From a virus, in the IMG/VR virus record IMGVR_UViG_3300030104_006883, positions 1-64,000 of that record: a DNA stretch of 64,000 bases. One strand, 5' to 3'. The notes under the pieces were generated by a model. The model saw only the letters and a list, made by a program, of their open reading frames with translations. It was not told the DNA's origin and searched no databases. Both the position numbers and the translations under genes were made by a program. Every line of letters starts with the position of its first letter. Position 1 is the stretch's first letter. Positions 11,724 to 29,910 of the stretch are shown piece after piece.

Positions 11724-11945
11724 ATGAATGAAATGGCTTACGATACAACAAATTTAATTGACTTTACCTTAATAAAGTTAAAGAGGATGCGCGACGAAGC
11801 GCGAAAGATAGCATGGTTCGACATGGTAGCACAATTAGAAATGGCTATAGAATTGTACGAACAAGGAAGAGCGACAATAGATTGGGTGGACGGTGAGCCA
11901 CTACTTACACTAAGGAGTGTACTAGATGATAATCAAGAAAAATAG
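11724..11945 (+). CDS. Hypothetical protein
   Basis: Motif-preceded ORF. Confidence 0.65.
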   Translation: MNEMAYDTTNLIDFTLIKLKRMRDEARKIAWFDMVAQLEMAIELYEQGRATIDWVDGEPLLTLRSVLDDNQEK

Positions 11946-12240
11946 ATTGGTAGAGATAATCAAAGAAGAGCTAGCTAGGTTTGAAGAGGTTGCAAATATT
12001 GGAGCCGACGTAAACTCTAGCTATAAAGAAGGGTATGACTACGAAGACGACGGATACGCTGATGATGAGATGGAGCATAGGAGAGACGCCTACGAAGAAG
12101 AGCATGGAGAACGCATGCCGAATCCATTGATTAAGCCGTCCGAACGTCTATCCGGACAGGAGCAAGCTGATAACTTTTTTCGTTCGATGTACGAGAAAGG
12201 TTGGAAAGGGCCTGGTACACCTTGGCCTAAGTCTGAGTAA
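11926..12240 (+). CDS. Acidic protein with IIKEEL-type leader
   Basis: MIIKKNRLVEIIKEELARFEE. Confidence 0.65.
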   Translation: MIIKKNRLVEIIKEELARFEEVANIGADVNSSYKEGYDYEDDGYADDEMEHRRDAYEEEHGERMPNPLIKPSERLSGQEQADNFFRSMYEKGWKGPGTPWPKSE

Positions 12241-12255
12241 CACCGGAGACAAAAC

Positions 12256-15200
12256 GTGAACTTTCAAGATAAGTGGAAAAATTTTTTAGTCGAGGTTTCC
12301 TCGGCAGATGCAATGCAAAATCTAAGGGGCTCGGCTGGGGATAAAATCCTTAACGCCTGGGCCTACGATATGCTTCAAAAAGCCAAAGAACAGATGGCGG
12401 ACTTAGAAAATCCGGACTATTATGCTCCGGGTGACGGTCCCGACCAGGACCAGATAGACTACGCCGAAGAAGTGGCGGCTACATATGCACTGATGATGCC
12501 AGGAAAAAAATTCCGAAATAGGTACGGTCCTGAACTTAAGGGCATGATAGCAGACACTATTGAAGAAACGGTGATACCGCAAGATATAACGGATAATCAA
12601 AAGGGCGCAGCAATACTTTGGTTTGTTCGTATACTTCGAAAAAACGTAAAGGTAAAAACAACCATGGCGCAAGCCGTTTCGTCACTTCGAGACCATATCG
12701 TGTCCACAGAGGCTAGTCATGCACTTGATACAGCACTACTCGACATAGATGCTTCTGATATGACCAACTACCTTTTCTCTGTAAATCGGAGTCTTGAAAT
12801 GTTCTTCCAGTACCCAGATTTTATGGGAACCAAGGACTTAAATAGAATCCAAAGTCCAGACCAGTTACTTGATATTACTGACAAGGCTTGGCCGGACATT
12901 AAAGCGTATCAAGAAAAACAGAAATTTTTAGATGCTACGGAAGGCACTGAAGTGTTCAGGGATGATGATGAGTGGTATATTGCTGCTATACACAACAAAG
13001 GAGCAGCCTGTGAGCTTGGAAAAGGTACCGAGTGGTGTACTGCGGCACCTGGGTTGGATTATTTTGCTCAATACTACAAGCCTGGCGATCCCTTATTCGT
13101 TTTCGTTCCGAAAAATGACCCTAAGAATAAGTTCCAGTTTCATTACGGTACAAAACAATTTATGGACCGAGGAGATCGTGAGATTTCGGACGAAAAGGTC
13201 GGCAAACTTCATCAATTATTGAGTAAAACGAAAGCTAAACAAAAATATAAAATTATCTCAATGTATGATGACACCATACTTTCTAAGGACCCGAACATAT
13301 CAGAAGAAGACGCAGTTAGAATATACAATAGCAGTGCGTCACTTGATATGATGCTTGGATTGCTTGAAAACCCTGGCACTCCTGCTGGTTTGTTAGCTAA
13401 CGCTGAAAAGACAATGGGAGTCACTTCTCCTGAAGATGATCGTCGCAATGATGTGAATATGACTGTTTGGGCAGTTACGAAAGCACTCATAAATAACCCT
13501 TCTACACCTACCGAAACTATCGTAAGAATAATGGATAAATTTGATGTTAAAAAGAATCCAAACGTTAGAAAGCTTACTAGTAATCAGATGTATATACCGA
13601 TTTTAAGTCATCCAAATATGCCGGTCGATATTGTTAAAAAAATTCTTTTAGGTGGGAGTGACTACAATGTAGGCTTCTCTTGGAAAGCACGAGGGGAAAT
13701 ATTTAAACATCCAAAATTGGATGATGCCTTCCTATCAGAGTTTGCTACAGAAGAATTTAAAAACGATTGGACTGATATCCTTGCAAATCCTAACTTAGGA
13801 AATAAAACATTTGAAAAGATGTTGCAGAACGAAGATTTTAGCAGCATCGTTGGGCTAGTTTCTCTTAAGGAGTTTTTACCCGCGTTATTAGAAAATCCAA
13901 AAATAAAGCCAAGTGCCATAATGAAACTCTACAAAATTGAAAAGAAATCGCTAGAGAAAGAGTGGGACAGAATTGGCATGACTGACGGTAACTGGCAGAC
14001 AAAGCACAGCGAAGAGATTCTAAAGCAGATTGAAAATAGTCCTAAGTTTGTAAAAAAAGAAAACTTCCATAAGAAATGGAAAAGCAAACTTAAAGAACAA
14101 ACAACTATCCTTGGTTTATCTAATAAATACAATAACTTAGGGCAAGCAATAAACGACAAAAGAGTTGTTATTATATTTTACGAAGGGGACGATACAATTA
14201 GCAGAGGAGCTAGAGCAATTGAGCCTGTAGTCCTTGGGACACATTTCCAATCCGGAAATCCAGTTGTTCGAGCATGGCAGATTCAAGGAGCTTCCGACTC
14301 GCCGGACAACCTCCCCGGATGGCGCTTGTTTAGAGTGGATCGTATTGGAAGTTTAAGAACTACAGAGGACACGTTCAGCACTCCTCGCCCAAAATATGAT
14401 CCTAACGATGATCATATAACATCCCAAGACGCGACAGCGCAGTTCGGTGCAGCACTACAAGAAACAAAAAATAGTCGTTTAAAATTAGCTGTTTACGAAC
14501 AAAAAGTTGTAAAGAACTTTAAACAACTAAGAAAGTTTGTAAAGGAACAAGAGTCAAGAAAAGAAAAAGATTTGAACACGTATAGTGCTATAAGGCAAGC
14601 AACTAAGGAAAGAGAAGAAGAAGAATACGAGATAGAGAAAGAAAAAGCTTATTCCCAACGAGCACTAGAGAAAGGTAATGAAACCTACGTTCAAAACATC
14701 CGAAAGATTCTAGAGAATGTTACCATGACGCAACTACCGGATTTTTTTGATGTAGATAAAGGAAAATTAAAAGTGGCAAGAGATCCGGATGAGTTTCTGG
14801 ATAAAAACATTTCAGTCTTTTTAGACGTTGCAGACGAGATTCCCTCCGATAACCCATTGAAATCAAACAAGATTACTGGCCTTTTGGGCTCTGGGGCTTA
14901 CGGGGTCGTATTTGAGTTAAACAACGGTCATGCTCTCAAGCTATTTTCCGGAGGTATAAGAGGAGAAGCGGCAGAAGAAGAAATACAATGGTACAAAGAA
15001 ATGAAAAGCGATCAATTTACAGGAGCTTCCCGAAGAGGAGAGCTTGCTGTCTTTGGCTCAGGTAATTTATCGACTAGCAACTTTGATGTTGCTTGGGCAG
15101 AAATTGGAAAAGTAGTACCACTTAAGGCTTGGGCCAAGCAAAAAGGCACGAATCCCATGTTGACTGCGATGCATTTTAATGGCGTGCACAGCCATCTGTC

Positions 15201-15516
15201 TGACTTAGCATTTTCTTATAACCCGCACCAGTTAGATTCAGACATAGAGCCGATTAAAGAGAATCCAAGTAGTAAAGATAAAATTCAATATGTAAAATAT
15301 CTTTTAGGACTTGTTCATAAAAGCCCAGTTGGACTTCCCAAAGAATCGCAGCATGGATATAACACAGTTACTTTAGCTAAAATGCTTAGAGAGGTCTTGG
15401 AGATTGCTGTTAAAAAGGGTGATCGCTTAGTGTTTGATACAGAGACGGCAGATGTCCACGCCGGAAATATAGGATTCCATTTAGCAGATGACCAGCCAGT
15501 AGTATTTGATAGATGA
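12256..15516 (+). CDS. Multidomain protein: PcfJ-like, LRV-like repeats, WYL domain, protein-kinase-like domain
   Basis: EWCTAA motif; six xLxNP/HP repeats; RAIEP...RAWQ...WRLFRVDRI; LGSGAYGVV, ALK, DVHAGN, VVFD. Confidence 0.8.
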   Translation: MNFQDKWKNFLVEVSSADAMQNLRGSAGDKILNAWAYDMLQKAKEQMADLENPDYYAPGDGPDQDQIDYAEEVAATYALMMPGKKFRNRYGPELKGMIADTIEETVIPQDITDNQKGAAILWFVRILRKNVKVKTTMAQAVSSLRDHIVSTEASHALDTALLDIDASDMTNYLFSVNRSLEMFFQYPDFMGTKDLNRIQSPDQLLDITDKAWPDIKAYQEKQKFLDATEGTEVFRDDDEWYIAAIHNKGAACELGKGTEWCTAAPGLDYFAQYYKPGDPLFVFVPKNDPKNKFQFHYGTKQFMDRGDREISDEKVGKLHQLLSKTKAKQKYKIISMYDDTILSKDPNISEEDAVRIYNSSASLDMMLGLLENPGTPAGLLANAEKTMGVTSPEDDRRNDVNMTVWAVTKALINNPSTPTETIVRIMDKFDVKKNPNVRKLTSNQMYIPILSHPNMPVDIVKKILLGGSDYNVGFSWKARGEIFKHPKLDDAFLSEFATEEFKNDWTDILANPNLGNKTFEKMLQNEDFSSIVGLVSLKEFLPALLENPKIKPSAIMKLYKIEKKSLEKEWDRIGMTDGNWQTKHSEEILKQIENSPKFVKKENFHKKWKSKLKEQTTILGLSNKYNNLGQAINDKRVVIIFYEGDDTISRGARAIEPVVLGTHFQSGNPVVRAWQIQGASDSPDNLPGWRLFRVDRIGSLRTTEDTFSTPRPKYDPNDDHITSQDATAQFGAALQETKNSRLKLAVYEQKVVKNFKQLRKFVKEQESRKEKDLNTYSAIRQATKEREEEEYEIEKEKAYSQRALEKGNETYVQNIRKILENVTMTQLPDFFDVDKGKLKVARDPDEFLDKNISVFLDVADEIPSDNPLKSNKITGLLGSGAYGVVFELNNGHALKLFSGGIRGEAAEEEIQWYKEMKSDQFTGASRRGELAVFGSGNLSTSNFDVAWAEIGKVVPLKAWAKQKGTNPMLTAMHFNGVHSHLSDLAFSYNPHQLDSDIEPIKENPSSKDKIQYVKYLLGLVHKSPVGLPKESQHGYNTVTLAKMLREVLEIAVKKGDRLVFDTETADVHAGNIGFHLADDQPVVFDR

Positions 15517-15517
15517 T

Positions 15518-15784
15518 ATGACTGAAGAAAAAATAACATTAGAGGGTTTAACACTGGAGGAGTTGATCGATACGCTCCAAAGAGAATTACAACTTTTAGT
15601 TGAAGAGAATACAAGACTCTTAGATAGAAACCTACAAATGCAAGATGAGATTGATAGCCTGTGGGCGATGATGGATGCAATGACAAACGCTGAAAAAGAG
15701 GCGTGGCTAGAAGTTCTAGATGATTTAGATACTGATACCGCTGTAAAGGCGATGATGATCACGAAGAAAAAGGCGGACTGTTAA
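15518..15784 (+). CDS. Coiled-coil hypothetical protein
   Basis: Heptad repeats. Confidence 0.65.
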   Translation: MTEEKITLEGLTLEELIDTLQRELQLLVEENTRLLDRNLQMQDEIDSLWAMMDAMTNAEKEAWLEVLDDLDTDTAVKAMMITKKKADC

Positions 15785-15831
15785 AAAATACTCAGAAACT
15801 ATTTACGGATATAAAGATCCCAGGATAGTTA

Positions 15832-16113
15832 ATGAAGTTTAAGATAGGTGATTTAGTCACTCTTAAAGACTCATCTAAAGAAAATCGTAAGCATACGGCT
15901 AGGCAGTGTAGGCTAGGTGTTATACTTGCTTATGAGACGCTTAACGATGTCTTGTTGTACAAAGTACACTGGTGGCCGTTTAATCAACCTTTCTATTTTG
16001 AAGGCCATGACCTAGAGATAGCATCTAGAGTCTTTTTACATGACCCTATACCCATAGGGGGTAGTGGCTCACTTATCATTGATGATGATTTTCCCATAGG
16101 ATCTAACGACTAG
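15832..16113 (+). CDS. KOW/SH3-like protein (solo copy)
   Basis: MKFKIGDLV...GVIL...VHW...DLEIAS. Confidence 0.7.
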   Translation: MKFKIGDLVTLKDSSKENRKHTARQCRLGVILAYETLNDVLLYKVHWWPFNQPFYFEGHDLEIASRVFLHDPIPIGGSGSLIIDDDFPIGSND

Positions 16114-16136
16114 CTTGTCTAGTAAGGAGGATTAGT

Positions 16137-16514
16137 ATGACAGTTGGAGCAGTAGGAGGGGTAGGGCCACAAGCAGCGCCCGTTAGTAATCCACAAGGTC
16201 AAGGGGCACCCAAGGAAGTAGCGCCCGTAGGGCAAGCAGAAAGTGCCCCACAAGGCGTTTCTAACGTAGACTCTAGGGAGGATACTATTTTGGGGCCAAA
16301 CTTTGATCCTATAACGGAAAGAATGAGCACTAAGGACTTCGTATCGTTAAGTCAAGGAATAGCCGGGGCTGAAGATTCCATGAAAACCATTAAGGATATG
16401 ATGAAACTTATTATGGCTCTGCAAATCTTAGAAAAAACCATGGAAGCTACCGCTGATATTATAGAAAACGTTCTAGGGAACGGTGATAACAAGATAAATA
16501 CCGGGGATATGTAA
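16137..16514 (+). CDS. Hypothetical protein
   Basis: AAGGAG-like SD, 125 aa. Confidence 0.65.
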   Translation: MTVGAVGGVGPQAAPVSNPQGQGAPKEVAPVGQAESAPQGVSNVDSREDTILGPNFDPITERMSTKDFVSLSQGIAGAEDSMKTIKDMMKLIMALQILEKTMEATADIIENVLGNGDNKINTGDM

Positions 16515-16516
16515 AC

Positions 16517-16575
16517 AAAAAATTTTGGAGAAGAAAATTTTCGGGTTTAATTTTTGGAGATTTAAATTTTTCGGG
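16517..16575. repeat. Tandem A/T-tract dimer (AATTTT(T)GGAGA...AAATTTT(T)CGGG) x2
   Basis: Read directly in the intergenic DNA. Confidence 0.7.
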
Positions 16576-16602
16576 AGCGTTCCGCTCCTACTAATTACCC
16601 AT

Positions 16603-16878
16603 ATGAAACAACGATTTGTCGACTCTTGGACTTTTACAATCCTAATAACAATTCTGCTCATCGCCCTCTTTGTGCTAGCAGTGCCTGATAGCAGGGCACG
16701 GAGCCCAAAAGCAAAGTTTTACGACTTCAATGAGCAATTAATTGACGGGGAAATAAAAAAACCAAGCACGCTATATACAGACTCTCATACAATAACAAAA
16801 TTTGATAGACTGTTGCGTTTAAAGAAGAGCTTCTTACCAAAGCTTTTTAAGACATCCAAAGAAAAAGTTTTTAAATAG
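16603..16878 (+). CDS. Exported small protein resembling adventurous gliding protein CglF/GltF
   Basis: Signal/TM segment then YDFNEQLIDGEIKKPSTLY...KFDRLLRLKKSFLPKL; similarity judged from memory of the family pattern. Confidence 0.55.
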   Translation: MKQRFVDSWTFTILITILLIALFVLAVPDSRARSPKAKFYDFNEQLIDGEIKKPSTLYTDSHTITKFDRLLRLKKSFLPKLFKTSKEKVFK

Positions 16879-16887
16879 GAGAAAAAC

Positions 16888-17124
16888 ATGAACCCTGAGC
16901 GCATTGATTCAATCACAACCATCTTAAAGTCGTTAACTCAACTAGGCATTGGAATAATAGCACTTCTTTTTACACTACAAGTATTAATTGGCCCTGATCA
17001 CTTGGTGTTCCCTATAAACACACTAGAGAACATGATACAATTGTCAGGAGATCTTGGACCGCCTGGCTTGTACTTAGTTTTAGCTGTGCTTGCCTTATCT
17101 TGGGCCTTTACACGAAAAAGGTAA
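16888..17124 (+). CDS. Two-TM membrane protein
   Basis: Two hydrophobic segments. Confidence 0.65.
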   Translation: MNPERIDSITTILKSLTQLGIGIIALLFTLQVLIGPDHLVFPINTLENMIQLSGDLGPPGLYLVLAVLALSWAFTRKR

Positions 17125-17129
17125 GTTCA

Positions 17130-17534
17130 ATGAAAAAGTTTAAAGGTTGGAATAACTTTTTAAATGAACTGGAGGACGACACGAAAATTGTCGCTAAAGC
17201 AGTTATATACGTTGATGAAAAAATTCTTATGTTAAAAAAAGCAAAAAATTCAAAATGGGATCTCCCCGGTGGACACCTTGTCAAAGGAGAAACAGTGTTG
17301 CAAGGACTAAAAAGAGAAATTAAAGAAGAGACCGGTCTTTACATAGATACCAGCGTTGCCGAGTTGGTACAAAAAAGCGCACATAAATTTTATTATAAAC
17401 TCCCGCTACCTGACGGTATAATATCATTAAGTGGCGAACACACAGAGTATCGCTTCATATCAAAATCCGACATTGACAATCATGACATCTCTAGGAATTA
17501 CAAGAATGTCATTAAAAAGTCTTTTATCGGATAA
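17130..17534 (+). CDS. NUDIX hydrolase
   Basis: Nudix box GGHLVKGETVLQGLKREIKEETGL. Confidence 0.9.
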   Translation: MKKFKGWNNFLNELEDDTKIVAKAVIYVDEKILMLKKAKNSKWDLPGGHLVKGETVLQGLKREIKEETGLYIDTSVAELVQKSAHKFYYKLPLPDGIISLSGEHTEYRFISKSDIDNHDISRNYKNVIKKSFIG

Positions 17535-17558
17535 ACACTAATTATTAAAGAGGTTAAG

Positions 17559-17896: not shown

Positions 17897-18214
17897 ATGC
17901 AGAAAAAAGGATCAAAAATTTTCTTGCCGAAGAAAAAGACTAGGTGGAAAAGCATCTCCGAAAACGAAGTAGAAATATCTTATGAAGATGATAAAGGAGA
18001 TTTGACTATAATAGGTAAGGTTTTTAGAAAACCGTTTACTCTAAAATGGAACATAGATGTATATTTTTTTCTACCCAATAGTCACACAATAGATTTAGAC
18101 GAAACTTTTGATAGTGAGATAGATGCAGGAAGAAGAGTCGCTAACTTGTGGGAAGTAAACAGAGATTATGAATATTTTAATTTAGAGAGTTTTTATGACG
18201 AAACAATTTATTAG
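17897..18214 (+). CDS. Hypothetical protein
   Basis: ORF in co-directional run. Confidence 0.6.
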   Translation: MQKKGSKIFLPKKKTRWKSISENEVEISYEDDKGDLTIIGKVFRKPFTLKWNIDVYFFLPNSHTIDLDETFDSEIDAGRRVANLWEVNRDYEYFNLESFYDETIY

Positions 18215-20093
18215 AGTTCTTACGTTACTATTACTAACAGTAGCGTTGATGACTTGCTCCGAGAGTCAAAACGAGAGAGCAGAACTTACGTTTGATACAA
18301 AATCGCATATCTTTAATAAATCTCTCTCTCCGGAAATGATTCACTATTTTGCAAAAAACAATTATGAAAAAAGATGTTATAAATTTGAATTTTACTTTTG
18401 TCCTCCGCTAGACGAAGTTTGGCAAATGCAGGTTACAACAGATGTCTGCAAAGATCCTCCTGAAATCATTTCTATTAGCGAGTGCTTTGAAATCTTTGAA
18501 TGCGACCCAAGCACACCGGACTTGGGAGATGTTGATTGTACAACTGATGATGGATACCCCGGTACTCAAAAGAAAATTTGTGATAAAGGTAAAATAAAAT
18601 ATACTGATTGCACCTCTTTGTGTTCTGAAGAAATCTGCGACTACGAGGACAATGATTGTGATGGCCATATCGATGAGGGGCAGAGGAACGCTTGCGATGA
18701 ATGTGGCTTCTTGCCGGAAGAAGCTTGTGATAACGTGGATAACGACTGTGATGGTGGTACTGATGAGGACTTGATTCAAGACTGCTATTCTGCTTGTGGG
18801 GGCGGTATTGAGTACTGCGTTGGTGGTATCTGGGTTTCTTGCACAGCGCCCCCTGTCCAGACAGAAATATGTGACGGATTCGACAACGATTGCGATGGAC
18901 AAATCGATGAAGGTATAAATTGTGAGTGTACAATCGCAGACGTTGGAGTTCTTTTCCCTTGTAAAGAAGAACCTTTAATATGCGGGGAAGGATATAAAAC
19001 TTGCGAATGCACAACGCCGGACTGCTCGGAGATTTTGACAACAGACTGTGTATCTCCTTGTGTGTATTTCCCGGTACCGGACGAGGAATGCGATCCTACA
19101 AAAGGTGCTGTTGCTGCTGAAGAATGTAATAATTATGATGATAACTGTAATCAATTAATTGACGAAGACTTGTTTGAAATGTGTTACACTGCTGACCCAG
19201 AGACGCTGTTTGTAGGTATTTGTAAACCTGGTATTCTGACGTGCTACAAAGGGACTTGGGGCAATTACTTTGAGGGTATACCTGACTATTTCGTACCGGG
19301 TCTTTGCAAAGACGAAGTAACACCTCAAGAAGAAATTTGCGATGGTGTAGATAACGATTGTGATGGCGAAACAGACTCAGGGGAAGAATTGGGACCTGTT
19401 GACGTTCTCTTTATCGTTGATTGGTCAGGATCGATGGATACAGAGATATATGCTGTTATGTCTGCTCTTAATAAGTTTGCTGCTAGCTACAGTGACGAAG
19501 AGGTTTTACAATGGGGTACTATTCTAGGACCTATAGACCACGCTTGGAATAATTCAGAATACTTAAATCTTTACCATAATCTTAGTGGATTTAGTGACTT
19601 TCTATCTTCAATGTCACAATTAAATATAAGTTCTTGGGCAATGTCGGGTGCTAGAGAGATGATGATGGACGCGATATATCTCTCGTTGCACAATCTCGTT
19701 GGGTCTGGGTCTTTGCCAGTTGCCATTCCCCCGTTGAAATGGGCCACAGGCACTGGAGTTACTGAATCTCAACCTCCAATAAAAGATTTTATCATTAACT
19801 GGCGAACCGATCCAGAGGTTAAAAGAGTTATCGTGCTGTTTACCGACGAGGGCTCTCAAAGCTATACTATTCCGGATATCACACAAGATATCCTGCTTGA
19901 ACTAATAGGAAAAATTACAAATACTAAAATATACATATTTTCTCAAACAATTCATAAGGACAACTGGATTGCGCTTGAGGGATGGGATCCCCTTTGTGTC
20001 GCTTCTGGCGGCAAATGGTACCAGCTAACTGACGATATGGTGACTATGTATAATAGCCTAATGGAAATTATTGACGAAAACGCCTGTAAGTAA
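18195..20093 (+). CDS. Cys-rich lipoprotein with five putative metal-binding (MopE-like) repeats and C-terminal vWA domain
   Basis: Lipobox-like LMTC; five ExCD/NxxDNDCDG-type repeats; MIDAS DWSGS. Confidence 0.8.
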   Translation: MTKQFIRVLTLLLLTVALMTCSESQNERAELTFDTKSHIFNKSLSPEMIHYFAKNNYEKRCYKFEFYFCPPLDEVWQMQVTTDVCKDPPEIISISECFEIFECDPSTPDLGDVDCTTDDGYPGTQKKICDKGKIKYTDCTSLCSEEICDYEDNDCDGHIDEGQRNACDECGFLPEEACDNVDNDCDGGTDEDLIQDCYSACGGGIEYCVGGIWVSCTAPPVQTEICDGFDNDCDGQIDEGINCECTIADVGVLFPCKEEPLICGEGYKTCECTTPDCSEILTTDCVSPCVYFPVPDEECDPTKGAVAAEECNNYDDNCNQLIDEDLFEMCYTADPETLFVGICKPGILTCYKGTWGNYFEGIPDYFVPGLCKDEVTPQEEICDGVDNDCDGETDSGEELGPVDVLFIVDWSGSMDTEIYAVMSALNKFAASYSDEEVLQWGTILGPIDHAWNNSEYLNLYHNLSGFSDFLSSMSQLNISSWAMSGAREMMMDAIYLSLHNLVGSGSLPVAIPPLKWATGTGVTESQPPIKDFIINWRTDPEVKRVIVLFTDEGSQSYTIPDITQDILLELIGKITNTKIYIFSQTIHKDNWIALEGWDPLCVASGGKWYQLTDDMVTMYNSLMEIIDENACK

Positions 20094-20099
20094 ATATTT

Positions 20100-20924
20100 A
20101 TGATTATGGAAATAAACAAAAAGCTTTGGGAAGAATTCCTACAAGACAATAAAAAAATAGATTTAGATAGTTTTAAGCTTAGAGATGAGCTTAACCGTGA
20201 CGTCTGGGCTAGTGACGACAAGATCAGACCCGAAATAGCTGTCAAACTAGTTGAAATTGCTAAAAATTTCATGTCTAATCTTGGGCTAGGAGATATTGAG
20301 ATAAAAGATATTGTGCTTACAGGCTCTTTGTCAAACTATAATTGGTCCCAGTACTCGGATTTAGATCTCCATGTCATGGTAGACTTTGATGATTTGGATG
20401 AAAATGAGGAGTTAGTAAGAGAATTCTTTCGCGGAAAGAGCGGCAATTGGAATGATCGCCATGATATTAAACTTAGAGGCTTTGAGGTTGAGATCTACGT
20501 TCAAGATATTGACGAGCCACACGTCTCGACCGGCATTTATTCTTTATTAGAAGACGAATGGGTTGTTAAACCAACTAAAGATAAGCCCTCTCTAGACCTT
20601 AAAACAACAAAGATGAAAGCACAAAACCTTATGGACCTTGTAGATGACATCGAGAGACTATACAGAGAGAATAAGTTGAGGGAAGCTTATGTATCTTCTC
20701 AACTTTTAAAGCAGAAAATAAGAAAGTTTAGACAGTGTGGTCTGGAAAGTCCCGCCGGGGCTTACTCACCAGAAAATTTAGCATTTAAAGTGTTAAGAAG
20801 AAACGAATATCTTGCTAAGCTTAGCGACTTAAGAGATAACTCTTATGATAGATTGATGTCAATTGATGAAAATTTAAAACGCGATTGGCAAAATTACCTC
20901 AAAGAGGTTGATGAGGCTCTTTAA
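20100..20924 (+). CDS. Pol-beta superfamily nucleotidyltransferase
   Basis: LTGSLSNYNWSQYSDLDLHV, third acidic EIYVQD. Confidence 0.85.
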   Translation: MIMEINKKLWEEFLQDNKKIDLDSFKLRDELNRDVWASDDKIRPEIAVKLVEIAKNFMSNLGLGDIEIKDIVLTGSLSNYNWSQYSDLDLHVMVDFDDLDENEELVREFFRGKSGNWNDRHDIKLRGFEVEIYVQDIDEPHVSTGIYSLLEDEWVVKPTKDKPSLDLKTTKMKAQNLMDLVDDIERLYRENKLREAYVSSQLLKQKIRKFRQCGLESPAGAYSPENLAFKVLRRNEYLAKLSDLRDNSYDRLMSIDENLKRDWQNYLKEVDEAL

Positions 20925-20925: not shown

Positions 20926-21675
20926 GTGCAAAAATTACTAGAAAACTGGCGCAAACTGTTTGAAAACAAAGAAGAAAAGTCAAAAAAACTGTTTGCTTTT
21001 GATTTTGATAATACCTTAGTGCGCACAGACGGCCAAGTGTTGCACAAATCTAGTGATTTGCGGCTTAACCCCGAGCAATGGGAGCGCCTAAAGCTTCTTA
21101 ACCCCGATATATCGGAAGACGACTTCGACTTTAGTGAGTTTAAAACGGTTGTAAACCCAAAGCCAATCAAAAAAACACTAAATTTAATGATAAAGACAAT
21201 AAAAAAGCTCTCCGGCGACGACAAAATTGTAATTTTGACCGCAAGGGAGGTTTGGAGGCCGATTAAATCCTATCTACAAGAAGAATTTGATGTTGATATC
21301 GAAATTGTTGCTGTAAATTCGCCAAAATACTCGCACTTGGACGGTAAGGGACCTGAAAGAAAAGCCTCGTGGGTCAAAAAACAGCTTTCTGAGGGTTTTT
21401 CTAACGTATTCTTTTGGGATGATATGGTTGAGAACCTACATGCCGTTAAATCGTTAGAAATCGAGCACCCTGGAGTGTCTATTAAGGCATTTTTAGTCAA
21501 AAATGGTGCAGAAAGGTGCTTTGATAGGCTAGAAGAGATCGAAAAATTTCAACAAATGGTAAAAAATAAGCATTCTAGGATGAAAAAGAGGCTAATAAAG
21601 CACGGAAATCAACCTAATGTTCCACCATATAGCAAAAAACCTTCTTTTAAAAGGTCCAAATCTGCACCACCATGA
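20926..21675 (+). CDS. HAD-family phosphatase (PNKP/RNA-repair-like)
   Basis: FAFDFDNTL, ILTAR, FWDD; GTG start after upstream stop. Confidence 0.75.
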   Translation: MQKLLENWRKLFENKEEKSKKLFAFDFDNTLVRTDGQVLHKSSDLRLNPEQWERLKLLNPDISEDDFDFSEFKTVVNPKPIKKTLNLMIKTIKKLSGDDKIVILTAREVWRPIKSYLQEEFDVDIEIVAVNSPKYSHLDGKGPERKASWVKKQLSEGFSNVFFWDDMVENLHAVKSLEIEHPGVSIKAFLVKNGAERCFDRLEEIEKFQQMVKNKHSRMKKRLIKHGNQPNVPPYSKKPSFKRSKSAPP

Positions 21676-21761
21676 GGTGAATAGTGCTGTTGTTTTTTAT
21701 GGTTTTTTATAACTTTTGTCTCTATTTATAGTTACACAGCCATTCAAAGGGGTTAAAAAAC

Positions 21762-22385
21762 ATGAAAATTACAGAGACTGAGTTAAAAGACATCATTTTG
21801 GAGGAATTCAACGCCGTTGTTGAAGAAAATTCTCTCGACGAAGGGTTTTTAGACCGACTAAAGCGTGGATTTGGCGCAGCTAAGGATGCTTACGCTAAAA
21901 CTCCTGAAGAAATGTCATCTGAAGCTGCACAAAACGCAGCCGATGTGGCCCTGGACGCTGTAAAGGATTTTGCAAGCGCTTTCGGGAATGATCGCAAGAA
22001 GATGGTTAGACGATTAGGAAGTTTAGACTTAGACCAGCTAGTTGAATTAAGTCCGGAACTGGCCACTTCAATTAAAAGAGTTTTGTCTTGGTCAAAGGGA
22101 GGAAATACCAGGTTAGCAAACCTAGTTGATGCCCTTGAGCTTATCCAAGATCCTAAGTTAGCTGCTGACATTGCAGCCTCTCAGGATGCTACACCCGGAT
22201 TGGGTGCTGGACGTAGGCCGCGCGGTAGAGGAGTTTCTGGTGGAGACGCCATTAAGAGAGGCGGCACAGCCACCACTAGAGGCCTTGGAGCAATGGCTGA
22301 GAATATAGATAGTGATCTGAAAATTACAAAAGAAGGCCTAATGGCAATGATTAAAGATGAGCTTGAAAATTCAAAACAAAACTAG
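21762..22385 (+). CDS. Hypothetical, probable virion/head protein
   Basis: MKITETELKDIILEE leader, repeated near the C-terminus (LKITKEGLMAMIKDELE). Confidence 0.6.
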   Translation: MKITETELKDIILEEFNAVVEENSLDEGFLDRLKRGFGAAKDAYAKTPEEMSSEAAQNAADVALDAVKDFASAFGNDRKKMVRRLGSLDLDQLVELSPELATSIKRVLSWSKGGNTRLANLVDALELIQDPKLAADIAASQDATPGLGAGRRPRGRGVSGGDAIKRGGTATTRGLGAMAENIDSDLKITKEGLMAMIKDELENSKQN

Positions 22386-23028: not shown

Positions 23029-23039
23029 GGAGAAAATTA

Positions 23040-23204: not shown

Positions 23205-23214
23205 GGAATAAGGA

Positions 23215-24123
23215 ATGGATCTTTTTTCTATCATCCAAGAGGTTATCTCTGAGAATAACCCTTTAGGTTTTGGCGAAGGAAAGCCTACTAGTGACGAAAT
23301 AAGCAAAAAGCAAACTGTCGCACTAGAAGAAGATTCCGAGGACGCCGAAGAGCTAGACGAAATGTCTAGTATGGCCTCCGGTGCCGTAGAAGGGGGTATA
23401 TCTAGAGAAGAATTTGTTGAAGAACTTAAGCTTAGAGAGTTCATTCAAAGAGCAATTAAGAATATTAAAGAGAAAAAAGTACAACAAATAAGAGAAGAGA
23501 GTAAATTAAGAAAAATAATTCAAAGCCTTGTTAAGGAAGCTTCGACACCAGACGTTGACCCGACGCCAAATAGAGCGACAGGCATTAATGTGTTAGAGGA
23601 GCTTTTGAAAAAAATAATACCGATTCTAGAGACTGATTACAAAACTCTCACTACAAACAAAGAGCAGCGAGACTCGTTTAGAGCACATATTTTAAATGCA
23701 GTAGAAAACACGATTAAACCGGCAATGGTTAACAACGCCGCCGGTCAGGATCCCATCCTAGATGAGCCGGAGCTAACAGAAGAAATAGACATTGATATTG
23801 AAGACGATGGACTCGACCTGGATACTAATGATGATTTTATCCCAATTGAAGATGACAAGCCAGAAGAAACAGATCCTGTAAAAGATTTCGGCCTTGAAGG
23901 ACAAAACGAAACAGGCAGAAATATGGCATACCAAAGCTTTAAGAAATTAGAGGCTAATATATTAGACTCATACGAACTTTTGTCAGATAAAGAAGATCAA
24001 GAGCTTTTTTATGATTATCTTTTAACAAACTTAAAGTTATACTTTGATAAATTTGAAGAAGAGTTGAGCCCATCAGCAGTAGAGCCCACTACGGATGCTT
24101 ATGAACAAGCAGTCACCGCTTAA
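23215..24123 (+). CDS. Acidic hypothetical protein
   Basis: 302-aa ORF, AAGGA SD. Confidence 0.7.
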   Translation: MDLFSIIQEVISENNPLGFGEGKPTSDEISKKQTVALEEDSEDAEELDEMSSMASGAVEGGISREEFVEELKLREFIQRAIKNIKEKKVQQIREESKLRKIIQSLVKEASTPDVDPTPNRATGINVLEELLKKIIPILETDYKTLTTNKEQRDSFRAHILNAVENTIKPAMVNNAAGQDPILDEPELTEEIDIDIEDDGLDLDTNDDFIPIEDDKPEETDPVKDFGLEGQNETGRNMAYQSFKKLEANILDSYELLSDKEDQELFYDYLLTNLKLYFDKFEEELSPSAVEPTTDAYEQAVTA

Positions 24124-24436
24124 AAACTATTCACTATCTAAAGTTTTAAAAGAAGAGGGCAAGTCAAACGATGAATTTGAAATAATGCTTTCTAATTTAA
24201 CTTTAGAAGAATTGATAGGTTTGAAACTAGAGACAGCAGGAAGGGTAGTTAAACATAAGCTATATGGCTTGCGTATTTATGACAGAATTGGTAAAATATG
24301 TAAAAATGCTATTTTTAAATACGCTATCTCTGCGGCTCAAAGTAAAAAAGAAGCCTCCATGTTTCTTGGGATGAGCATCAAACAACTTAACTATTATATA
24401 CGCAGAGAGAAGCTCTTTGAGAGCGAACAAAACTAA
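24101..24436 (+). CDS. Protein with C-terminal Fis-like HTH
   Basis: SKKEASMFLGMSIKQLNYYIRR. Confidence 0.55.
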   Translation: MNKQSPLKNYSLSKVLKEEGKSNDEFEIMLSNLTLEELIGLKLETAGRVVKHKLYGLRIYDRIGKICKNAIFKYAISAAQSKKEASMFLGMSIKQLNYYIRREKLFESEQN

Positions 24437-24459
24437 TTAATAAAGAGGAGGGGAAAATA

Positions 24460-24561
24460 ATGAAATCATTACTTCATAAATTAGCAAATCTGTTTAATAA
24501 CGAACATTGCTGCTGTTGTTGTGACTGCTGCTCGTGCGCAGAGTGCTCCGGCAAGTGCTAA
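24460..24561 (+). CDS. 33-aa metallothionein-like peptide
   Basis: AGAGGAGG SD; MKSLLHKLANLFNNEHCCCCCDCCSCAECSGKC*. Confidence 0.65.
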   Translation: MKSLLHKLANLFNNEHCCCCCDCCSCAECSGKC

Positions 24562-24566
24562 AACAC

Positions 24567-24878
24567 GGGGGTGAATTGGTATCGACTGGGTATTGACAAC
24601 CAGACGTGCAAGGCTGTGTGAGTGTGGCACAGTAAAAACACTCAAAACTTTAATTGCTAACGACAACGTTACTTTTGATTACGCCCTAGCGGCATAACCA
24701 CGGGGTGGCAGCAACCTTGTTAACCAAAGCTGCAAATTAAAGGTTTTTTTTACTAGCCTTACTTAATAGTAAACAACTTGAGTTTAGAGCTTGTTGGAGC
24801 CTATAACCAACTAACCTTGTGAACGACGTCTTTTTTGATATATGTAGGACTCGGGTTCGACTCCCGACACCTCCACCA
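24567..24878 (+). ncRNA. ssrA: tmRNA, tag ANDNVTFDYALAA (24656-24697)
   Basis: GGGGGTG/CACCTCC acceptor with G3-U70, ACCA end, T-loop GGTTCGACTCC, tag ending ALAA*. Confidence 0.95.
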
Positions 24879-24917
24879 TTTTACGTCATCTTATTGATTT
24901 ACATACTATTTAATAGT

Positions 24918-26117
24918 ATGAAATTACTACTTGAATCTTGGAAGCGGTTCTTAAAAGAAGAAGACAGGCTCGACGAACCGGATCCACTAGTCTTAAATGT
25001 TGCAGATATTGGTGACAGTGGCTTTTGTGTTTACAATCCCACCATCAACTCTTATGCACAAGAGAGCCCAGAAAATTTAGCAGAAATGTTAATTTTCGTT
25101 ATCGCAACTCAGCAGCAGAGATGGTATGAAGTTGTTCCAAGATTTCCTATCTTGATGAAATACATCAAACAAAATGATGGCCTATTAACCGGAGAAGAAT
25201 TCCAAGACTTCCCGCAGCCCATAAAGATGTTGATACTGGGATTCAGGAAGAGGGCGATCGATTATATTTGGAACAACCGAGGAAAAATGTATTCCTCTAT
25301 AATGTCAGACATAAACAAATATAATAATGCTAAATCCGGAAGCATCGAAAAAGAAGAGGCAATGTTCAATACTTACCTTAAGTTTTTAAGAGTTCCGGGT
25401 CTTGGCTTACCAAAAGCAGCCTTTGCTTCGCAGTTAATAATAGGCAGACTAGGATGCATAGATAGTATCAATCTTAATATTTATAAAGGTCTTGATCCTG
25501 AAGGCAAGCTGATAAAGACAGACAAAGACGGTCGCGTCGGCTTTAAAACTGCCGGAAAAAAGCTAGACACAAGCTCTAATTTGTACCAGCTTACAAAAGG
25601 TGGAGTTAAAATGGCTGAGAAGTATGTCGAGTTCTTAAGGCAAATTGCTGCTATGAATAAAACAACCGAAGCTAACGTATCAAAATCTCTTTGGGACACT
25701 TGGGTTGAAATTGTAGCTAAAAAAATCAACTTACAGGGCGATCTGGAAGTAATAATGCCTGGTGGTAAAAAGTTTAAAATTCCAAACGATTATTCCAAAA
25801 AAGCATCAAAGAACGATGGAGACCTGGCTGGTAAGTTTAGAGACCAATGGATGGGCAAAATTACTGGTAAGGATATCTCGCGTCAACATAATCCCTCTGA
25901 AATGTTTGAGGGTCTTCTAAGAGAATCCAGCACGACTACAGTGAGACAAATTCTAAGAGAGGCTGTAGTAAGAGGCTTATTCGAAGTTATTAGAAAAAAA
26001 GATGGCCAATACTGTTTAGTTGCAAAAACAGGTCGTAATCTCGGCTGCTACGATTCAAAAAAAGGTGCAGAGAAGAGGGAAAAACAGGTTAACTATTTTA
26101 AACATAAAGAGGGTTAA
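24918..26117 (+). CDS. Helix-hairpin-helix (DNA glycosylase-like fold) protein
   Basis: LRVPGLGLPKAAF followed by GCIDSINL; true start after tmRNA at MKLLLESW. Confidence 0.55.
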   Translation: MKLLLESWKRFLKEEDRLDEPDPLVLNVADIGDSGFCVYNPTINSYAQESPENLAEMLIFVIATQQQRWYEVVPRFPILMKYIKQNDGLLTGEEFQDFPQPIKMLILGFRKRAIDYIWNNRGKMYSSIMSDINKYNNAKSGSIEKEEAMFNTYLKFLRVPGLGLPKAAFASQLIIGRLGCIDSINLNIYKGLDPEGKLIKTDKDGRVGFKTAGKKLDTSSNLYQLTKGGVKMAEKYVEFLRQIAAMNKTTEANVSKSLWDTWVEIVAKKINLQGDLEVIMPGGKKFKIPNDYSKKASKNDGDLAGKFRDQWMGKITGKDISRQHNPSEMFEGLLRESSTTTVRQILREAVVRGLFEVIRKKDGQYCLVAKTGRNLGCYDSKKGAEKREKQVNYFKHKEG

Positions 26118-26120
26118 TAA

Positions 26121-26540
26121 TTGAAAAAAATAATTTTAGCAATATTCTCTTTATTTCTAACCTCTTCCTGTATTCCGGAAAGTTCTATACCTCTAAGGCA
26201 GAACGTTATAGTAACAGTTCAAAAGATAAATATCCCAAAAAATACTGTCATACTCTATTCTGCTCCTTGGTGTGGATGGTGTAAAACAGCAAAGAAATTT
26301 TTAATTGATAACGATGTTACTTTTATTGAAAAAAATTTTGAAAATAAGGCTGTTAAAGAACAACTTAAGTTGATCGCAAAACAGATAGGATACGAAGGCA
26401 CATTAAACGCTATTCCACTATTTGTTGTTAACGATAGAATAATAGTTGGATATGATCCAATTGAAGTCTTACACGCACTTGGTAGAAACTCTGGTAAGTC
26501 AACAGAGACTTCTATGGGAATGAGCGTGGTATACGAATGA
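26121..26540 (+). CDS. Glutaredoxin/NrdH-like lipoprotein
   Basis: APWCGWC, IPLFVV, lipobox LTSSC. Confidence 0.8.
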   Translation: MKKIILAIFSLFLTSSCIPESSIPLRQNVIVTVQKINIPKNTVILYSAPWCGWCKTAKKFLIDNDVTFIEKNFENKAVKEQLKLIAKQIGYEGTLNAIPLFVVNDRIIVGYDPIEVLHALGRNSGKSTETSMGMSVVYE

Positions 26541-27493
26541 AACTCCTACTTGAAAATTGGCGGAAGTTTATTAACGAGAGTCAAGAAGAAGGCCTACAGT
26601 ACCCGATGGCTGATCGCAATGAATGGTATGGAGATGCAGATTATAAAGCTAGAGGTGGTCGTATAGTTATGATGACACCGGATGAATATTTAAAAAGAGT
26701 TAGGCCCTTGGATATTGATGAAGGATCGAGAGACAACATTGATGATTTAAAGAATCACATATTGTCCGGTCGAACCCTGGATCCTCTAGTTATCTACGAA
26801 GATGGAAAAGAGGATGGGAGACATAGAGCACATGCCGCTAGAGAGTTAGGAATTAAGCAGGTCCCAGTAATTCTCTTTGGAGATCAAAATTTAAATGAAA
26901 ACAAATGGGCAGACTACGACGCTCCCAAAGGCCAGTGGCTTGATATACCTATCGAAGATATTGCTTCTGCCGCTAGAGATCGCGGCGGCGAAATAAACCT
27001 AGCCGATGAGTTATACAATCTTATAAATAACGCCTATAAGAAAATTGGTGGACATTCGAATATAAAATCTGCATCGGATTTACCGGGCAAATATGATGAA
27101 TACATTGCAATTGATATAGACTCTGATCCGGAGCCAGACGCTTTGCGCGTGTCTTCTAATAAGCCAGCAGGCAAAAAGATGACTGTTGCGGGCCACGATG
27201 GAAGCAAAGAAGCTATAACTGCTTATATAGATAAGTCAGCGCAACTATTGAATACTCCTGGGTATTTTTCTGAGATGTCAAAAGCAATTGCTCACATTAT
27301 GATAACCAAGTACGGTGTCCCGTTTGTGGATAGCCAAGAAGATGTCGAAAGAGTGTTAGGTAAAGAAATAACATGGCTAGGTGGTCATCCTGAAGGCAAG
27401 TATCCTAATTATAATGGTTGGTATATAAGGGATATTGGTGGCTCTAAAGAAGCGAAGATACTTTTAGGAATACCAAAGGGATTAAATGAATAA
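26537..27493 (+). CDS. ParB/Srx-like domain plus second unknown domain
   Basis: LDPLVI...EDGRHRAHAARELGIKQVPV. Confidence 0.65.
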   Translation: MKLLLENWRKFINESQEEGLQYPMADRNEWYGDADYKARGGRIVMMTPDEYLKRVRPLDIDEGSRDNIDDLKNHILSGRTLDPLVIYEDGKEDGRHRAHAARELGIKQVPVILFGDQNLNENKWADYDAPKGQWLDIPIEDIASAARDRGGEINLADELYNLINNAYKKIGGHSNIKSASDLPGKYDEYIAIDIDSDPEPDALRVSSNKPAGKKMTVAGHDGSKEAITAYIDKSAQLLNTPGYFSEMSKAIAHIMITKYGVPFVDSQEDVERVLGKEITWLGGHPEGKYPNYNGWYIRDIGGSKEAKILLGIPKGLNE

Positions 27494-28488
27494 TGAAAAA
27501 ATTGTTAACAGAGTGGCAAAGATATCTAAAAGAAAGTGTTGATGTTGTTGTTAAAGCAGCAACGGAACTTGTTTGCCCACCGGCAACCCAAGATCTAAAA
27601 TTAAACACAAAGAACCGCGATGCAGCTATCCACGAAGATCATATTCAATATGGTCCTTTAAACGTCGATGAACCGGGGGATTACTGGAAAGACATAGCTG
27701 AGTATTGGAATACCGATGAAAAGGCCGCTAAGGCATCATTATGTGGCAATTGTGTAGCATTTGATATATCACCAAGAATGAAAGACTGTATGCCTGGAGA
27801 AACTTCTGATAAAGACGGCGAACTGGGGTATTGCTGGATGCACCACTTTAAGTGTCATTCTGCTAGGTCATGTAGAACTTGGGCCAAAGGGGGTCCAATT
27901 ACAGAAAACAGTATGTCTGAGGATTGGCAAGAAAAAAATCAAGATTCTCTAGAAGAGAAGAAAGATGATCGCTGTACTCGTATCGCAAAGCGTAAATATG
28001 ATGTGTGGCCATCTGCTTACGCTTCTGGGGCAGTCGTCAAATGTCGTCAAGGTAAGATATGGAAGGGCGTAAAAGAAGATATTAGAAGAATAGTAGAAGA
28101 GGAGATAGAAAACGTATTAAGTGAGTCTTGTTGGGAAGGCTACGAGCAAGTTGGAATGAAAGAGAAGGGCGGTCGGATGGTGCCTAATTGTGTGCCTATC
28201 GAAGAAAATGAATTAGAAGAAAAGAAAAAGAAAACTGATTACTCTAAAGAAAAAGAATCCGGTCTACACGGTTGGTTTTCCCGACAAGGTGGCAAAGGCA
28301 AATCAAAAGGCTGGGTAGACTGTAACACCTGTAGAAAAGACAAAAAGACTGGTAGGAAAACTTGTAAATCGTGCGGAAGAAAAGAGGGTGAAAAAAGAGC
28401 AAAGTATCCACATTGTCGCCCAACACCGTCTGATTGCGGCACCTCAAAAAAATCTGGCAAGAAATCTAAAGCAGGAAAAAAAGGATAA
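27493..28488 (+). CDS. Mosaic of Cys-rich mini-domains, probable phage head protein
   Basis: CGNC..GYCW..C module, WPSAYASG module, CWEGY..VPNCVP module, GLHGWF..GWVDC module. Confidence 0.7.
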   Translation: MKKLLTEWQRYLKESVDVVVKAATELVCPPATQDLKLNTKNRDAAIHEDHIQYGPLNVDEPGDYWKDIAEYWNTDEKAAKASLCGNCVAFDISPRMKDCMPGETSDKDGELGYCWMHHFKCHSARSCRTWAKGGPITENSMSEDWQEKNQDSLEEKKDDRCTRIAKRKYDVWPSAYASGAVVKCRQGKIWKGVKEDIRRIVEEEIENVLSESCWEGYEQVGMKEKGGRMVPNCVPIEENELEEKKKKTDYSKEKESGLHGWFSRQGGKGKSKGWVDCNTCRKDKKTGRKTCKSCGRKEGEKRAKYPHCRPTPSDCGTSKKSGKKSKAGKKG

Positions 28489-28610
28489 TGAAAGATAATA
28501 AACAAGGTTGGTATGAGCCCCATATATGACCAGATGAACTTGACTGGCCAGGTGGGTCAGAAAATGTCAGAAAAGAAAAAGATAGAAAAAGCGCTAATAG
28601 GAAAAAAACA

Positions 28611-28955
28611 ATGAAATTTACTAAAGAACAAATAAGCAAAATTGTCACCGAAGAACTAGAAAACGTTTTAGAAGAGCAGTACTATGAGATGCTCGCAGAA
28701 GGCGAGGTTTTAGAAGAAGCAGAATATCAAGGAAGAAAGGTTACTCTTAACAAGCCTATGAGAGGCGATGTTAAAAAGTCCAAGGTATATGTAAAAAACG
28801 CTAAAGGAAACGTTGTAAAAGTAAACTTTGGTGATCCTAATATGAAGATTAAAAAGAACATTCCTGGTCGTCGCAAAAGTTTTAGAGCGCGTCATAATTG
28901 TGACAACCCTGGACCTAAATGGAAAGCAAGATATTGGTCTTGCAAGGCCTGGTAA
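28611..28955 (+). CDS. Conserved phage protein (FRARHNC family)
   Basis: VNFGDPNM...RKSFRARHNCD...ARYWSCKAW. Confidence 0.7.
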   Translation: MKFTKEQISKIVTEELENVLEEQYYEMLAEGEVLEEAEYQGRKVTLNKPMRGDVKKSKVYVKNAKGNVVKVNFGDPNMKIKKNIPGRRKSFRARHNCDNPGPKWKARYWSCKAW

Positions 28956-28956
28956 A

Positions 28957-29307
28957 ATGAAGATCCTATTTGAAAGTTGGCGGAAGTATATAAATGAGGA
29001 AGAAACACCCCAGGTTTTATACCACGGCACCAGTATCGTCCAATATGAACGAATAAAAGACAATGGATATAATGTAAAAGATTTCTATCTTGCCGATGTC
29101 AGTGATAAATCTGCTGATTATGCTGAAAAACAATCTATTGCCGATGGAAGTGAAGAATCTATAATTCTAACAATAGACACAAATAAGCTTGATGGTGAAA
29201 TAAGAACAGACCCAGGCTCAAATCCAGAAGAATTGGAGTATGACATGGGTCAGTGGGTTTTTATTGGTAATATAGAAGACGCTATTATTGATGTGGAGAG
29301 GTGGTAG
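28957..29307 (+). CDS. ADP-ribosyltransferase-like domain protein
   Basis: LYHGTS...FYLA...ADYA. Confidence 0.55.
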   Translation: MKILFESWRKYINEEETPQVLYHGTSIVQYERIKDNGYNVKDFYLADVSDKSADYAEKQSIADGSEESIILTIDTNKLDGEIRTDPGSNPEELEYDMGQWVFIGNIEDAIIDVERW

Positions 29308-29910
29308 ATGAAGTTATTGCTTGAAAACTGGCGGGAGTTTTTGAATGAGTCGAAACTCACTCCGCAGTACTTACAGAGGCTAGAGGCCGCTGGCATTGTC
29401 CCTGGTGCCGTGATACGAGACCATGAGTTTTCAGAGGAAAAACCTCTTATTGTTAAAATTGAAAAAGTAGATGAAAATGGCGTCTCGTGGACTGATAGTC
29501 TTGGGAGAGGAGAGATAGATCTCTATTCTGCCTTAGAAGCAGTCAACAGCGGAGATTGGAGAACTACAGGCGAAATGGGCCTTCCCAGTTATTTTAAAGG
29601 CATCGATCCTCCTAAATCTAAACGTCTAGACGGCATAACTGAACTTTTCTATGGCACGTCGACCGCATTAAAAGATTCATTAGTTGAAAATGGAGTTCCT
29701 GCTCCAAGCGAATGGGGAAACTATGAATTAGCCGAAAGTAATGCCGCAGCTAGCGTCGATAGGCACGGCGGCGAGATGATGGTTGTCAGCCTATCGATTG
29801 ATGATTTTGATAAGTCTAAATTTTCATTATACGAGGAAAAAGATCCTAGACTAGTGTATACTGAAGACATAAAGCTACAAATCCAGAAGATGGATAGAGG
29901 AGTAATCTAA
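29308..29910 (+). CDS. Protein with C-terminal degenerate ART-like domain
   Basis: LFYGTS...YELAESNA; MKLLLENW leader. Confidence 0.45.
   Translation: MKLLLENWREFLNESKLTPQYLQRLEAAGIVPGAVIRDHEFSEEKPLIVKIEKVDENGVSWTDSLGRGEIDLYSALEAVNSGDWRTTGEMGLPSYFKGIDPPKSKRLDGITELFYGTSTALKDSLVENGVPAPSEWGNYELAESNAAASVDRHGGEMMVVSLSIDDFDKSKFSLYEEKDPRLVYTEDIKLQIQKMDRGVI

Follow-up and report, generated by a model that had tools for sequence, protein, structure and literature searches.

The DNA analysed here is the first 64 kb (64,000 nt, hereafter the window) of IMG/VR record IMGVR_UViG_3300030104_006883, a complete single-contig virus record of 185,927 bp. The phage is an uncultured marine T4-type phage with a 186-kb genome, and nearly all of its genes lie on the + strand. 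Five open reading frames (ORFs) for unrelated proteins, starting at 24918, 26537, 27493, 28957, and 29308, share a 14-residue N-terminus, M-K-L-L-L-E-N-W-R-x-[FY]-[LI]-x-E, which we call leader A. A second peptide, leader B (MKITKxxLKxIIKEE), starts seven ORFs genome-wide, at 11926, 21762, and 28611 in the window and at 105612, 164219, 164558, and 164835 beyond it. An earlier note on this DNA had taken both peptides for a portable address tag that loads enzymes into the capsid for injection. Our analysis strongly supports the portability of the tag, whereas support for capsid loading comes from context: a gp21-type protease, T4-like residue spacing, tagged slots in the head module, and a late-gene-like upstream motif.

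We trained a hidden Markov model (HMM) on 185 distinct leaders and used it to score the ORFs. The five full-tag ORFs scored 21-33 bits, and their translations carry leader A as the earlier note had said. Its further assignments held in part. At 20926, leader A is present as a variant behind a GTG start, but it scored only 11 bits; at 17130 and 12256, the W-x-x-F-L-x-E half is kept, but the rest is missing and the scores were about 0 bits. The protein at 20100, which had been thought to echo the leader at both ends, has a genuine C-terminal copy, but its N-terminal WEEFLQD has Asp, not Glu. Leader B was confirmed by translation at 21762, 28611, and 11926, and it does recur away from the start, internally in the 27493 protein and close to the C-terminus in the 21762 protein. 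Using a six-frame regular-expression search of the whole genome, we found leader A only at the tagged ORFs, all between 12 and 30 kb, plus one spurious match. All features of the window are listed in Table 1.

Table 1. Leader-bearing genes, upstream motif sites, and neighbouring features of the window
Position (strand)	Feature	N-terminus or sequence	Details
11926..12240 (+)	Leader-B-like ORF	MIIKKNRLVEIIKEE	
12256..15516 (+)	1086-aa protein	VNFQDKWKNFLVE	Short-form tag WKNFLVE
17130..17534 (+)	NUDIX hydrolase	MKKFKGWNNFLNE	Short-form tag W-N-N-F-L-N-E only
18195-20093 (+)	632-aa protein		Signal/lipoprotein-like N-terminus; repeated MopE-type copper-binding motifs
20100..20924 (+)	Nucleotidyltransferase-like protein	LWEEFLQD (Asp for Glu)	C-terminal WQNYLKE at 20886-20906; protein ends ...DWQNYLKEVDEAL before the stop
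20926..21675 (+)	Variant leader A, GTG start	VQKLLENWRKLFEN	HAD/polynucleotide-kinase-like cargo
21722..21729 (+)	Upstream motif	CTATTTAT	40 nt before leader-B gene 21762
21762..22385 (+)	Leader B	MKITETELKDIILEE	Leader-B-like stretch also near C-terminus
24567-24878 (+)	tmRNA gene, phage-encoded		Tag peptide ANDNVTFDYALAA; directly 5' of the first leader-A gene (24918)
24906..24913 (+)	Upstream motif	CTATTTAA	12 nt before the 24918 start; candidate late promoter of the tightly coupled operon 24918-30317
24918..26117 (+)	Leader A, first operon gene	MKLLLESWKRFLKE	14-residue tag, acidic linker, weak HhH-GPD (Ogg-like) glycosylase-fold cargo
26121-26540 (+)	Small untagged ORF in leader-A operon		N-terminus signal/lipoprotein-like by eye
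26537..27493 (+)	Leader A	MKLLLENWRKFINE	ParB-like cargo
27493..28488 (+)	Leader A	MKKLLTEWQRYLKE	Cargo phrog_727; internal leader-B-like stretch at 28081
28611..28955 (+)	Leader B	MKFTKEQISKIVTEE	Small basic cargo (phrog_7595)
28957..29307 (+)	Leader A	MKILFESWRKYINE	Small ART-like cargo (LYHGTS); ART-PolyVal E 0.006; RNA 2'-phosphotransferase phrog
29308..29910 (+)	Leader A	MKLLLENWREFLNE	
29910-30317 (+)	Small untagged ORF in leader-A operon		N-terminus signal/lipoprotein-like by eye
32985-33058	tRNA-Thr(TGT)		

Among the cargo names given in the earlier note, NUDIX is strongly matched. The HAD/polynucleotide-kinase, ParB-like, ART-like (28957), nucleotidyltransferase, WYL, and helix-hairpin-helix (HhH; 24918, Ogg-type HhH-GPD) labels have weak matches only, and "ART-like" was not confirmed for the 29308 protein, whose AlphaFold2 model has a predicted local distance difference test (pLDDT) of 31. 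In the AlphaFold2 model of the 24918 protein (pLDDT 86.9), the leader is a separate helix at residues 2-15, followed by a low-confidence linker (16-24) and a confident core from residue 25, with a weak resemblance to archaeal 8-oxoguanine glycosylases. For the 27493 cargo, the ESM Atlas returned unnamed viral clusters only. In relatives, a NUDIX-like ORF carries MPMKYSWKGFLGE, and an 819-aa ORF (locus L009) has an N-terminus similar to that of the 12256 protein.

The leader-A tag extends well beyond this genome. We searched IMG/VR with a strict, degenerate DNA pattern encoding ENWRx[FY][LIF]NE and found it in at least 120 stretches; among the matches listed, 125 of 144 were canonical N-termini and nearly all others were N-terminal variants with a slightly longer lead-in. 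For comparison, we searched prokaryotes using one genome per species (185,579 species, 596 Gb). The strict pattern occurred there in 53 stretches, about the number calculated for chance, and 4 of the 45 in-frame matches were true N-terminal leaders, all on small contigs of metagenome-assembled genomes. Since the tag is common in IMG/VR and at chance level in prokaryotes, it is a viral feature.

The fetched IMG/VR loci contain at least 207 distinct tagged proteins of 66-837 aa, which fell into 101 BLAST-level cargo clusters after the first 16 residues had been removed. When one representative per cluster was aligned, only M1, W8, and E14 proved invariant, while K2, E6, N7, and R9 varied very little. 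Roughly one in four representatives had a Pfam match, including protein kinases, AAA_33/Zeta-toxin-type kinases, ART-PolyVal, DUF3990, C5 DNA methylase, a transglutaminase-like domain, GNATs, nucleotidyltransferases, HAD_SAK_1, a 2H-type phosphodiesterase, Amidase_2, DUF192, and PGDYG. Tags are also swapped within one cargo family. The 24918 cargo has 143 homologues, of which 48 of the 120 listed carry leader A and one (P0031) carries leader B, so that the two leaders replace each other. Other members begin with different short amphipathic N-termini, e.g. MSLKSLLKRLILE and MNFKLIHKAA..., and continue with the acidic linker and the conserved core; the MSLK-type leader is also found on a second, unrelated 520-aa protein in five contigs. 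Separately, in several proteins of relatives (P0011, P0017, P0018, P0021, P0022, and others), this glycosylase-like cargo and a NUDIX domain follow the same leader as a fusion.

A single N-terminal leader on many substrates is also the logic of ribosomally synthesised and post-translationally modified peptides (RiPPs), and the tag could be a recognition leader for a modifying enzyme of the radical-SAM/RiPP-like kind. We consider this very improbable, as the cargo consists of full-size enzymes rather than peptides. A PF04055 radical-SAM search of the complete genome gave no match, though it was positive in 14 of 14 control genomes; no systematic search was made for other co-occurring enzymes.

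The conserved 42 nt could instead be mainly a DNA or RNA feature, either a homology patch for shuffling or an enhancer of translation starts, with a peptide that has no role. In the 204 distinct contexts compared, the first conserved position is the ATG itself, identity drops to background after codon 14, and the 30 nt upstream are at background too. Within the leader, Arg9 is encoded by CGA, CGG, AGA, CGC, and CGT, and Leu4 and Leu12 by both CTN and TTR. Residues are thus kept through synonymous and two-step codon changes, which indicates that the peptide is under selection. Leader A also stands at the extreme C-terminus of the 20100 protein, of the 819-aa ORF of L009 (which has it at both ends), and of ORFs in L034 and L035, while a 541-aa ORF of a relative has one N-terminal and one internal tag. 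At such positions a purely translation-initiation role is ruled out. Some nucleotide-level structure does remain: Leu3-5 are biased to CTC-CTA-CTT, AAA and GAA are almost fixed, the orthologue of 29308 in a relative has another leader subtype (MKKLLTEW), and subtypes are partly genome-specific (MKKL-x-x-EW in 5 of 6 leaders of G043, MKLLFENW in 4 of 4 of G033). Based on these patterns, the leader DNA probably also serves as a joint for the exchange or homogenisation of cargo. Such shuffling could go along with a targeting role rather than take its place, and we give hardly any credence to a feature of the nucleic acid with a functionless peptide.

The phage that carries these leaders has a T4-type head. 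Its genome encodes a Peptidase_S77 (T4 gp21-type) prohead protease at genome positions 117519-118001 (113 bits); the protease gene spans 117474-118109. The major capsid protein is homologous to gp23 (E 2e-28), and its N-terminal propeptide region aligns with that of T4. The closest cultured relatives by capsid protein are Flavobacterium phage immuto and Microcystis phage Mel-JY01. Among tag-bearing IMG/VR records with a completeness of 90% or more (169-204 kb), 10 of 10 have Peptidase_S77, and the CheckV completeness of tag-bearing fragments is consistent with genomes of about 185 kb. The number of strict leader genes per near-complete genome, this one included, is 0-8; all are on the coding strand, and a reversed control gave none.

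In T4, the capsid-targeting sequence (CTS) is MKTYQEFIAE (PMC8442874), in which residues 4 and 7 target the protein and residues 8 and 10 direct processing (PMC9026906, PMC8442874). Asp at position 10 stops cutting, not targeting (PMC9026906, PMC3012670). T-even internal proteins are diverse and have only the CTS in common (PMC9026906, PMC3012670), and T4 Alt is trimmed at both ends (PMC9026906). The end of leader A, W8-x-x-[FY]11-[LI]12-x-E14, has the spacing of T4 Y4-x-x-F7-I8-x-E10, and leader B keeps it as well, with L8-x-x-I11-I12-x-E14. As in the T4 CTS, the leader closes with (L/I)-x-Glu, and the residues three and six positions ahead of the Glu are hydrophobic or aromatic. In the capsid proteins of the lineage, LL[KR]E|[AS]S is conserved some 17 residues ahead of the mature core, which would fit a protease that cuts after L-x-E.

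The two leaders also occur in the head module itself. We compared 18 modules, which share the order portal, ~270-aa gene, ~180-aa gene, small membrane protein, protease, ~140-aa gene, and small basic gene, followed further along by an acidic scaffold-like protein and then the capsid protein. The slots that flank the protease gene are variable and have the position of T4 genes 67, 68, and 22. Proteins in these slots carry leader A in genomes G005, G029, and G046, and leader B in G024, G034, and G009 (at both ends in the last); the slot protein of G005 (182 aa, acidic) starts with MKLLLEHWNRYLQE and has a leader-B-like end, ...IREIIKEE.... In the genome under study and in G001, the leader B of the slot protein is a hybrid, M[TK][IL]T[KE]ENLKKFILEQ. 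PHROG searches of the slot proteins gave no match. The tags are therefore used by proteins of the head-core region itself. Complex prediction for the leader (40 aa, 65-row alignment) and three partners, namely the protease, the acidic scaffold-like protein, and a conserved ~134-aa head protein, gave a score of 0.00, which we counted neither for nor against binding.

The acidic, core-like character of the tagged head-module proteins, along with the acidity of most cargo, raises the alternative that the tag does target the prohead core but that the cargo acts in assembly or is degraded and expelled, as are T4 gp67, gp68, and gp22, so that no effectors are injected. We think this improbable: ART, ParB-like, kinase, Zeta toxin, and methylase cargo are folded enzymes of the host-takeover type, with no obvious part in assembly.

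Certain likenesses between the leaders and other head proteins may hint at the origin of the tags. The propeptide of the capsid protein (genome 120872-122662, L143:8873-10660) keeps the motif LL[ND]KW...LLEG of T4 gp23 (L225:10946-12508), which is loosely leader-A-like (LLENW..FLNE), and T4 gp67 has IDLIKEEK, resembling leader B. We also considered whether leader A mimics the helix at the N-terminus of the capsid protein (AELLNKWKPLLEGE in T4, AALLDKWSNTGLLEG in this phage). The leader HMM did not bear this out, and we keep the idea only as a lead.

Tagged genes and virion genes have an upstream motif in common. The 8-mer ACTATTTA is 12.6-fold enriched in intergenic DNA, and its core, CTATTTA[TAC], is enriched there as well and lies 24-70 nt 5' of the tail sheath, tail tube, baseplate-wedge, fibre-like, and acidic scaffold-like genes. 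Sites include window positions 2056, 15799, 21722, 24906, 35500, and 37116 and genome positions 119585, 125528, and 128616. In related loci, the motif is found within 100 nt of 34 of 201 tagged genes, compared to a background of 1.8% (about 10-fold). The shared motif suggests that tagged genes are co-regulated with virion genes, and CTATTTA[TAC] is a candidate late promoter of the lineage. It differs from the T4 late promoter TATAAATA, for which the genome shows no enrichment (8 sites, with 12 expected). Scans for sigma-70 promoters and terminators stayed at shuffle level. In many tagged genes of relatives, a motif start 11-15 nt from the ATG hints at leaderless mRNAs.

The common motif also bears on a reading in which the tag serves as a helix for docking to a different hub protein, such as a phage or host chaperone, RNA polymerase, the replisome, or a membrane factor, and gathers enzymes at one site in the infected cell without capsid loading. 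Short amphipathic helices that work at either terminus are typical of hub-binding peptides, and the acidic cargo differs from DNA-associated internal proteins. A hub of this kind would leave unexplained why tagged genes have an upstream motif in common with tail genes, why the same tags occur on variable head-module proteins adjoining the protease, and why the tag ends in the cutting motif expected of that protease. We regard hub docking as rather unlikely.

We have observed the tag itself, its portability, its restriction to viruses, its link to a T4-type head and head module, and its T4-like residue pattern. Based on these, we consider it probable that leaders A and B are capsid-targeting propeptides of the T4-type head, a variant of the T4 capsid-targeting system. 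In favour of this we also count the exchange of A and B on one cargo family, their presence at C-termini, the separate leader helix in the 24918 model, the upstream motif, and the overlap of the cargo with the domains of polyvalent proteins. The leader, a predicted amphipathic helix of 14-16 residues at a protein terminus, would dock its protein onto the scaffolding core during prohead assembly. The gp21-type prohead protease would then cut after the closing Glu of [FYI]-[LI]-x-E, leaving the cargo in the head, and at least some cargo would be delivered with the DNA into the next host. The delivered set would comprise enzymes that modify nucleotides, DNA, and proteins (NUDIX, ParB-like, ART-like, HAD/polynucleotide-kinase-like, nucleotidyltransferase, kinases, methylase, GNAT, and Zeta-toxin-like).

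It is important to note the points that weigh against this interpretation. Packaging, core binding, cleavage, retention, and ejection or injection are all steps that we infer. Beyond the residue pattern, leader A is not alignably homologous to MKTYQEFIAE, and the co-occurrence with gp21 is not discriminating because all tag-bearing genomes belong to one lineage. The cargo is acidic, with a median isoelectric point of 5.0 (77% below 6) compared to 5.85 for the genome, whereas T4 internal proteins are basic (PMC8442874). The timing of the upstream motif is deduced solely from the genes that it precedes, and for 17 of 34 motif-bearing genes the distance from motif start to ATG is only 11-15 nt, an odd geometry for a promoter. 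Finally, leader A was not found in the cultured phages immuto (Flavobacterium), Mel-JY01 (Microcystis), C48C1, and HTVC008M (Pelagibacter), from which leader B is absent too, nor by blastn in 50,697 GenBank phage records.

A wider reading is plausible, though we would not call it probable. In a whole lineage of abundant uncultured marine T4-type phages, the tags (A, B, and the further types on the 24918 cargo family) may form a modular code for virion loading, in which interchangeable tags are matched to the phage's own prohead core and protease, 42 nt suffice to turn any enzyme gene into that of an injected effector, and the tag DNA doubles as a recombination joint. The result would be an arsenal of more than 100 cargo families, a "disaggregated polyvalent protein."

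Should the tag be a signal for capsid loading, one could simply read N-termini to learn which proteins are pre-packaged by a large group of unculturable ocean phages. The tagged proteins would be those present in the cell before any phage gene expression, and a list of them would double as a catalogue of candidates for host takeover and anti-defence, mostly enzymes without a match to any known family. The principle of the T4 CTS would widen from a few small basic proteins to general enzyme delivery, and the leader, a natural tag of 14 residues, could serve to load foreign proteins into T4-type capsids other than those of coli phages. Our literature search returned no paper describing the leader-A tag and did not find the motif LLENWR in a phage context; among the marine-phage papers listed, none mentioned capsid targeting.

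Two further features of the window stand apart from the leaders. One of the two small untagged ORFs of the operon (26121-26540 or 29910-30317) has a glutaredoxin domain, and positions 1-11000 have a G+C content of ~48%, compared to ~38%, with chains of small MKVGDLV-type ORFs.

Several known systems can be compared with the one described here. In PeSL-type shuffling cassettes of T4-type phages, the conserved element is intergenic, whereas conservation here is confined to codons 1-14. For the giant phages SPN3US and phiKZ, the cutting motif is reported as small residue-x-Glu, and their ejection proteins are not known to have a single common portable leader of this kind. The likeness to the proposed system lies in their many head-internal ejection proteins, which a T4-related protease cuts after Glu (PMC5694885, PMC7411985).

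Phages and conjugative elements encode so-called polyvalent proteins, for which packaging and injection are predicted (Iyer et al. 2017, PMC5512222). The hub domains of these proteins include DdrB-type ParB and ART, with links to NUDIX and GNAT as well (PMC5512222). Their repertoire overlaps with the tagged cargo in ART-PolyVal, DdrB-type ParB-like, NUDIX, GNAT, methylase, nucleotidyltransferase, and peptidoglycan hydrolase domains. The middle part of gp6 (493 aa) of Octadecabacter virus DB2 is a homologue of the 26537 ParB-like cargo; gp6 is encoded beside the terminase gene and continues into an ART-PolyVal-like stretch after the ParB-like part. We saw no MuF, portal, or Zn-peptidase hub here. 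Polyvalent proteins have 2-15 domains in one polypeptide, whereas here every domain has a gene and a tag to itself; the tagged ORFs of this genome have at most one recognisable domain match each and lack the multi-domain build.

The T4 CTS and its internal proteins are the comparison on which our interpretation is modelled. The leader here has 14-16 residues instead of 10, its consensus differs, and it comes in at least two types that can replace each other. The cargo, known here from its sequence, consists mostly of acidic enzymes from more than 100 families across the lineage, whereas T4 has a few small basic proteins. Both systems combine a T4-type head and a gp21-family protease with a short N-terminal Met-Lys leader on unrelated proteins (PMC9026906, PMC3012670, PMC8442874). 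Both also have the spacing aromatic-x-x-aromatic-[IL]-x-Glu, possible terminal propeptides at both ends, and a polymorphic set of cargo that lies outside the head module.

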